From: Coleofasciculus chthonoplastes F2-STO-03
GTDB taxonomy: Bacteria; Cyanobacteriota; Cyanobacteriia; Cyanobacteriales; Coleofasciculaceae
Assembly: GCA_040222015.1 (NCBI GenBank)
Contig: JAVJWO010000014.1
Span: 1 to 20,600 of the forward strand
Direction of reading: 5' to 3'
DNA: 20,600 bases
Part shown: one piece after another, positions 1,200 through 1,419 of the stretch
How the letters are laid out: every line of letters begins with the position of its first letter
Position numbering within the stretch: position 1 is the stretch's first letter
Translations under genes and position numbers: made by a program
The notes under the pieces: model-generated
Seen by the model: only the letters and a program-made list of their open reading frames with translations
Told to the model about the DNA's origin: nothing
The model's database searches: none

Positions 1200-1221
1200 T
1201 TCAAATTGAGAGGTGATGATC

Positions 1222-1419
1222 ATGACACAACGACTCAAGAGTTGGGAGTCTCCTCGCCGTCAAGGGCGAAATGACAAAGGCAAAGGCGGTTCCGCCAGAG
1301 CCAGACAACTGAAGAAGCAACGGCAAATGTTGCTCAAGAAGTTGAAAGAAAGCGGAAAAGCCGAACAACAGAATCAGCAAGGGGGAAGAGAAAAAGACAC
1401 TCTTCCCTCTTTTTTTTAA
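1222..1419 (+). CDS. Small basic protein (65 aa), candidate ArfA/BrfA-like ribosome rescue factor
   Basis: GAGAGG SD at 1208-1213 then ATG 1222 (alternatives 1213, 1216); 18 K/R versus 6 D/E; KGKGGS at 1276-1293; function is inference. Confidence 0.7.
   Translation: MTQRLKSWESPRRQGRNDKGKGGSARARQLKKQRQMLLKKLKESGKAEQQNQQGGREKDTLPSFF
1381..1417 (+). terminator. Intrinsic terminator lying inside the 3' end of the small ORF
   Basis: Stem GGGGGAAGAG (1381-1390)/CTCTTCCCTC (1400-1409, one GU), 9-nt loop, T8 at 1410-1417. Confidence 0.85.

Follow-up and report, generated by a model that had tools for sequence, protein, structure and literature searches.

Small basic KGKGGS proteins of cyanobacteria with a transcription terminator inside the reading frame: a candidate family for back-up ribosome rescue

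Herein, we describe a family of small basic cyanobacterial proteins in whose genes a predicted intrinsic transcription terminator is built into the coding frame and precedes the first stop codon. Judged from comparative sequence analysis, it is a new protein family that uses the known design of arfA and brfA, and it is very probably built for translation from an mRNA without a stop codon. We regard it as a strong candidate for a new back-up rescue factor in a major phylum. The founding member is encoded in the window, the 20,600-nt stretch of Coleofasciculus chthonoplastes F2-STO-03 DNA that was analysed here.

Wherever it has been put to the test, back-up rescue of ribosomes stalled on mRNAs without a stop codon has proved essential. 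To our knowledge, the release-factor-dependent rescue factors are confined to some proteobacteria (ArfA and ArfT) and a few Bacillus (BrfA). A search of open-access papers and bioRxiv, supplements excluded, returned no such factor from cyanobacteria and no printed mention of the motifs of the family. If the candidate proves true, the family would provide the missing rescue factor for an entire phylum that matters both ecologically and in biotechnology.

The small gene and its spread

The coding sequence (P0001) is an open reading frame of 65 codons at 1222–1416 of the forward strand. The Shine-Dalgarno sequence GAGAGG was read directly from the sequence at 1208–1213 on the same strand, with a spacing of 8 nt to the ATG at 1222. 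The protein begins MTQRLKSWESPRRQGRNDKGKGGSAR and contains 10 lysines and 8 arginines, giving 18 basic residues of 65. Its residues 12–26 read RRQGRNDKGKGGSAR and include the motif KGKGGS (residues 19–24; 1276–1293, forward strand), which was recognized both in the translation and in alignment A1, composed of 28 small-protein sequences that all come from one order. The 65-residue frame with its Shine-Dalgarno sequence, its 18 lysines and arginines and its KGKGGS motif had been pointed out in an earlier note on this DNA, and all of these features were borne out by the sequence.

Alignment A1 delimited a conserved N-terminal block of residues 1–42 (1222–1347, forward strand), with the consensus M(T/A)QRLK(R/S)WESPRRQGRNDKGKGGSARxRQLKKQxQMLRKKLK. 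There were 29 invariant columns in A1, 28 of which lay within residues 1–41, the last being P62. AlphaFold2, run on A1, predicted a coil for residues 1–24, a confident basic alpha-helix for residues 25–51 and a disordered tail; pLDDT values were up to 94 in the block, with a mean of 70. The predicted helix and the variable linker rich in Q, N and K that follows it are encoded at 1294–1374 of the forward strand. Counted from where the conserved block stops through the T-run, the linker and the hairpin-encoded residues together spanned 13–43 residues across 92 loci.

To judge coding potential, we compared the codons of the block across 96 loci. Within a 37-codon block, the entropies at the three codon positions were 0.557, 0.343 and 1.345. 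Pairwise codon differences in the frame of the ORF comprised 73,863 synonymous and 33,173 non-synonymous changes, a ratio of about 2:1, whereas the same differences read in the other two frames gave 7,816/99,567 and 4,315/101,080, that is, about 1:13 or worse. On this substitution pattern, the small ORF is a protein-coding gene under purifying selection.

The family is widespread. In a six-frame search with a limit of E≤10, 53 of the 61 related genomes had a match, and 52 of those matches reached E≤1.2e-12. Across the phylum, the family was present in 114 of the 401 genomes sampled. In protein collections, relatives numbered 755 for the form seen in the window and 1,069 for a Nostocales form, and no functional name was found among them; all were hypothetical or unnamed save for two automatic labels, one reading 'ribosomal protein S19' and the other 'uncharacterized surface anchored protein'. 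Homologues with locus names include MC7420_216 of Coleofasciculus chthonoplastes PCC 7420, Cylst_0383 of Cylindrospermum stagnale PCC 7417 and Nos7524_4205 of Nostoc sp. PCC 7524. A profile search against 1.84 billion cluster representatives (50% identity) recovered 452 at E≤0.001, including 66 weak matches with E between 1e-10 and 1e-3. When P0001 was compared with Pfam (E≤10) and NCBIfam, no family was matched, and a look-up in the ESM Atlas returned only unnamed cyanobacterial clusters.

The terminator within the reading frame

The last residues of the window protein are encoded by what looks like its own terminator. The hairpin, identified by sequence and fold at 1381–1409 of the forward strand, lies within the reading frame and encodes GGREKDTLPS. 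Its 5' arm GGGGGAAGAG (1381–1390) consists of purines and its 3' arm CTCTTCCCTC (1400–1409) of pyrimidines; the arms are separated by a loop of 9 nt and form a stem of 10 pairs, one of them G-U. The hairpin is followed by a tract of eight T (1410–1417, forward strand), which is translated as Phe-Phe and is the expected site of transcript release. The TAA stop codon occupies 1417–1419 of the same strand, its first base being the last T of the tract. The earlier description of a 10-bp hairpin plus T8 at 1381–1417 that encodes the last residues, with the TAA on the last T, is exact in the sequence. The hairpin had been absent from a consensus terminator scan because that scan admits loops of 3–8 nt, and the loop here has 9 nt. 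The minimum free energy was −18 kcal/mol, with a z-score of −1.99, and 10 of 200 shuffled sequences folded equally well. Taken by itself, the fold of the window hairpin is only modestly unusual, and it is through comparison across related loci that it stands out beyond chance.

For this comparison, 140 distinct loci were assembled, 30 from the search of the relatives, 26 new ones from the phylum sample and 84 retrieved by coordinates. They cover every one of the 114 genomes with a match in the phylum sample, plus 26 further relatives. Another 23 matched genomes of the relatives' search were left aside at that step, some of which recur in the phylum sample. One locus (L164) was cut by a contig end, leaving 139 that could be assessed. 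A hairpin plus T-rich run, in frame and upstream of the first stop codon, was present in 135 of these 139 loci; 132 were scored by script and three by eye (L016, L052 and L091). Of the other four, one (L153) had the hairpin with its T-run displaced by 5 nt, and three (L075, L174 and L178) had an ordinary stop after 43–52 codons and no hairpin. No stop codon upstream of the hairpin was found in any of the 135 hairpin-bearing loci. The earlier note had named the possibility that orthologues mostly stop before the hairpin, so that the window would represent a strain-specific loss of the stop; 135 of the 139 loci speak against it.

Among the 132 loci scored by script, the stop codon began at a median of 52 nt downstream of the T-run, with a range of −1 to 241 nt. 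Over 92 loci, the first stop after the T-run lay on average 17.5 codons away in the frame of the ORF and 15.4 and 17.1 codons away in the two alternative frames. This stop is equally remote in all three frames, which argues that there is no selection for a stop. Within the genus of the window, the tails after the two phenylalanines were unrelated, while the protein through ..LPSFF was 89–100% identical. On this comparison, the tail encoded after the T-run is under no selection, nor is the stop codon. Both parts of the pattern that the earlier note proposed to look for, a hairpin and T-run conserved before the stop and C-terminal residues that vary, were thus found, the former at 135 of 139 loci and the latter as unconserved tails. 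As the hairpin is kept, no stop precedes it and the stop drifts, the non-stop design is a trait of the family and not an accident of one strain.

The stems themselves differ among the loci. There were 75 distinct arm pairs, and arms of the same locus paired at 97.3% of the inner positions, compared with 71.0% when the two arms came from different loci; in 2000 permutations of the arms, the observed pairing was never reached. In counts anchored on the fold, A-T and G-C pairs were each common at all ten stem positions. The residues encoded by the hairpin shifted together with the stem, as in GGRE..SLP, REE..LFP and GGE..HPL. By this covariation of the arms, the hairpin is selected as RNA. The genomes are related and not independent, and the covariation and locus counts accordingly make the events seem more numerous than they were; the stems are nevertheless so varied that there must have been many. 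RNAalifold predicted no pairs in a MAFFT alignment of 76 hairpin regions, because loop lengths differ and the alignment is out of structural register.

For the window itself, the overlap of the TAA with the T-run means that some transcripts may carry a complete stop codon, unlike those of most relatives. Transcripts that ended 2 nt later would include the stop. Judged by the pattern in the family, the overlap is probably incidental.

One group of genomes (f26; L081–L087 and L150–L175) was peculiar in that the tail some 20–130 nt past the T-run looked conserved (..LNVRTNRASNARL..LQLPLQSF). The nucleotide conservation downstream crosses genera and extends past the stop of the tail, and Rfam gave no match. 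Most likely, this apparent tail represents the terminal part of a conserved, convergently oriented gene or some other element, rather than an extension of the protein.

Relation to known rescue factors and proposed role

As described in PMC6881298, the coding region of Bacillus subtilis brfA contains an intrinsic terminator, and trans-translation represses the gene, as it does arfA. Its product, BrfA (YqkK), is likewise small and basic and is made as a non-stop product that is kept low by trans-translation, according to the same account; the authors of that work suggested that comparable systems may await identification in many bacteria. BrfA, an RF2-dependent factor, differs from the present family in being restricted to a subset of Bacillaceae, whereas the cyanobacterial family occurs in 114 of 401 genomes, and the two showed no similarity in a profile search of solved chains. 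That search, run with A1 against all solved chains at E≤10, revealed no rescue factor, the sole match being a nucleolar protein (E=0.014); the presence of a BrfA chain among the solved chains is taken from the cryo-EM work reported in PMC6881298.

The likeness to ArfA (YhdL, PF03889) includes small size, basic composition, a non-stop mRNA (predicted for the present family) and a KGKG(G)S motif whose flanking R, N, K and R stand in register. KGKGGS, the ArfA motif KGKGS plus one G, is invariant or nearly so in the 28 sequences of A1. Enterobacterial ArfA gene calls (P0123–P0242) show the same signature as the cyanobacterial family, in that their lengths range between 69 and 110 residues and their tails beyond ..FFTTG are unrelated. 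Such scatter of gene-call length after a fixed point may serve as a screen for further non-stop genes.

Homology to ArfA, which the earlier note had proposed to check with profiles, was not supported. None of the 28 family members matched the Pfam ArfA family PF03889, which also had no match in the window's own genome at E≤1, and BLASTP against E. coli ArfA (annotated K-12 record) gave E=19. hhalign against the ArfA profile aligned only 14 columns, those of the motif, at a probability of 3.3%, with RQGRNDKGKGGSAR opposite RVEKNKKGKGSYMR of ArfA; in this alignment of 3.3% probability, R, N, K, G, K, G and R, which are invariant in each of the two families, fell in register. The N-terminal part differs as well. 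As the earlier note had remarked, only 18 residues precede the motif, fewer than the 33 of E. coli ArfA. The segment of ArfA that binds RF2 comprises residues 15–31, with F25, in the account of PMC6299226, and this RF2-binding strand has no evident counterpart here. What stood of the proposal of an ArfA/BrfA-like factor was the stop-removing terminator, as in arfA and brfA (135 of 139 loci); what did not stand was homology to ArfA. Compared at the level of sequence, the small protein resembles ArfA and BrfA in expression design and motif, yet belongs to neither family.

Other rescue proteins provide further points of comparison. ArfT of Francisella tularensis is very small and basic, and its KKGGSTNKK (PMC6299226) is the closest printed match to KGKGGS, as compared by eye. 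ArfT differs in that its regulation, as described in that paper, does not proceed via a non-stop mRNA. It works with RF1 or RF2 (PMC6299226), and the release-factor partner therefore need not be RF2. ArfB and SmpB have basic C-terminal tails that bind the empty mRNA channel, as reported in PMC6299226 and PMC6881298, and the present protein has its predicted basic helix of residues 25–51 behind the motif; unlike ArfB and SmpB, it is a small protein with no GGQ, no RF-1 domain and no SmpB domain. The distribution of ArfA, as given in PMC11633108, is limited to gamma-proteobacteria, some beta-proteobacteria and 10 species of the Bacillus subtilis group.

The window's own genome contains tmRNA, with the tag ANNIVPFARKAAPVAA, together with RF1, RF2 and ArfB (NF006718, 192 bits), the last at a separate locus. 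Its RF2 gene (L102:1009–1926, contig C130) encodes SPY where at least 90% of 22 relatives have SPF, and the first usable start leaves about 59 N-terminal open-frame codons without a start, as expected with a +1 frameshift, which prfB usually uses. In the sample of 401 genomes, the family and ArfB were found together in 58; 56 showed the family without ArfB, 72 showed ArfB without the family, and 215 showed neither of them. The two occur together in 58 of the 114 family-bearing genomes, indicating that they are not complementary; ArfB was not found in the other 56. These co-occurrence counts do not discriminate between the possible roles of the family.

We think it somewhat probable that the protein is produced from a non-stop mRNA, tagged by tmRNA for destruction, and acts as a back-up factor on stalled ribosomes in the manner of ArfA and BrfA, recruiting a release factor. 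The intrinsic terminator inside the reading frame would end the mRNA, so that most transcripts would lack a stop codon, and ribosomes would reach the 3' end of the stop-less message and stall there. As long as trans-translation works, the product would be tagged by tmRNA and degraded. When trans-translation is saturated or failing, untagged protein would accumulate and could bind stalled ribosomes with an empty mRNA channel via KGKGGS and the basic helix behind it. Release of the peptidyl-tRNA would then be promoted, most likely through recruitment of a class-I release factor, as with ArfA and BrfA. Transcript termination in vivo at the T-run, tagging by tmRNA, binding to the ribosome and recruitment of a release factor are inferences, as is the co-transcription with a tRNA gene that is considered below.

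A non-stop, tmRNA-gated protein need not recruit a release factor. It might instead be an inhibitor of translation or a hibernation-type factor, a signal of failing trans-translation, or a helper of ArfB, of Pth or of subunit splitting. We consider such a function unlikely, though well worth weighing, since the non-stop design argues for gating only and for no particular activity. The lack of ArfA homology and an N-terminal part far shorter than the RF2-binding part of ArfA fit it, as do the genomes in which ArfB coexists (58 of 114), and the near-invariant residues 1–42 would suit any ribosome ligand. However, ArfA and BrfA, in the accounts of PMC6881298 and PMC11633108 the only known proteins made this way, are both RF2-dependent rescue factors, and the KGKG of the family aligns with the ArfA motif KGKGS, which docks in the vacant mRNA channel (PMC6299226).

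The position of the stop bears on a further alternative, namely that the protein is an ordinary small one and its compact gene simply shares its 3' end with the terminator, with read-through or later transcript ends being sufficient and no special role for tmRNA. The stop overlaps the T-run in 4 of the 132 script-scored loci (the window, L004, L062 and L088) and lies 1–12 nt beyond it in nine more, and the three loci with normal stops and no hairpin would also agree with this alternative. But in 119 of the 132 the stop lies more than 12 nt past the T-run, no closer than in the wrong frames, and the tails are unconserved even inside a genus, whereas a gene in need of a stop would retain one before or at its terminator. 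Moreover, purines make up 93% of the 5' arms and pyrimidines 93% of the 3' arms, and a stop codon is therefore impossible within the arms in any frame, an elegant means of fitting a terminator into a coding frame. An ordinary protein thus appears improbable.

Together, the covarying hairpin, the stop-proof arms and the free drift of the stop prove by clean comparison that selection can favour a terminator placed within a reading frame.

The upstream tRNA gene and other neighbours

A tRNA-Leu gene (anticodon CAA, no encoded CCA), not mentioned in the earlier note, was detected at 1117–1199 of the forward strand by ARAGORN and by Rfam (RF00005, 56.3 bits). Its end and the start codon of the small ORF are 22 nt apart. 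The sequence TTGCTA-18-TATAAT at 1070–1099 of the same strand matches the promoter consensus at 10 of 12 positions and is likely the promoter of the tRNA-ORF unit. Among the 140 loci, 54 had tRNA-Leu(CAA) immediately upstream on the same strand, with a gap of 19–26 nt in 41 of the first 47, and 86 had no tRNA upstream.

RNA data were available as contigs of four metatranscriptome runs, which cannot reveal the start, the 3' end or the strand of a transcript. Two contigs from RNA libraries of two studies span the tRNA and the ORF, one covering 1101–1319 with no difference and the other 1089–1376; they fit a single transcript, which is a weak hint of one, and their beginnings at 1101 and 1089 are a weak hint of the promoter-like site. 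Two contigs break off at 1376 and 1378, either ahead of the hairpin or within it, and one reaches 1418 and then continues into other sequence. The stretch 1396–1426 had no RNA-contig coverage in three of the four runs, which carries no meaning.

The arrangement with the tRNA gene raises the question of whether there is a functional protein at all, the ORF being instead a 3' trailer of tRNA-Leu or a leader-peptide attenuator of a downstream gene. The position of the ORF 22 nt after tRNA-Leu(CAA), repeated in the 54 loci, is what speaks for it, and we hold it to be very improbable: both the attenuator and the trailer readings are contradicted by the strong coding signature, by the 86 of 140 loci without an upstream tRNA, which show that the small gene is not a mere tRNA trailer, and by the lack of a consistent downstream gene, as downstream genes differ and are often convergent (in the window, a Ser/Thr kinase gene on the opposite strand), leaving nothing to attenuate.

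With the small gene taken as protein-coding, its message in the lineage of the window would be the 3' trailer of the tRNA-Leu(CAA) transcript. It is almost as likely as not that the family represents a fourth, independently evolved group of release-factor-dependent rescue factors, the first outside Proteobacteria and Bacillaceae, which occurs in most oxygenic cyanobacterial orders, is gated by trans-translation via the in-frame terminator and in many lineages has neither a promoter nor a stop of its own, the 5' end being made by 3' processing of tRNA-Leu and the 3' end by termination. If this is true, tRNA transcription would govern the supply of the message, and whether it survives would depend on the state of trans-translation.

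The genes around the related loci varied and included those for M48 peptidases, kinases, GNAT proteins, glyoxalases and a WecG transferase, often in convergent orientation. No translation-linked genes were found among the flanking genes of related loci. In the window, a gene for an M48-family peptidase with HExxH lies upstream of the small ORF at 269–1138 of the forward strand, and the order of M48 peptidase, tRNA-Leu(CAA) and small ORF recurred in at least six loci of different genera (L002, L010, L014, L024, L046 and L050). Downstream, a convergent gene for a Ser/Thr protein kinase (Pkinase, 109 bits) occupies 1470–2630 of the reverse strand and ends about 50 nt from the terminator of the small gene. 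Read on the minus strand, the hairpin lacks a T-run and is therefore probably not the terminator of the kinase gene. At the left end of the window, two overlapping minus-strand ORFs (25–234) read ..VIGHWSLVIGHLSLVIGHWSFVIGH, which indicates a short tandem DNA repeat.

In four Nostocales loci with no upstream tRNA-Leu (L040, L043, L052 and L053), a tRNA-Gln(TTG) gene was located on the same strand, 60–200 nt past the stop of the small gene, and overall the small gene tends toward the vicinity of tRNA genes. At one of these Nostocales loci, a gene for a YhaV-type toxin (PF11663, 213 bits; L052:602–1105) adjoins the small gene.
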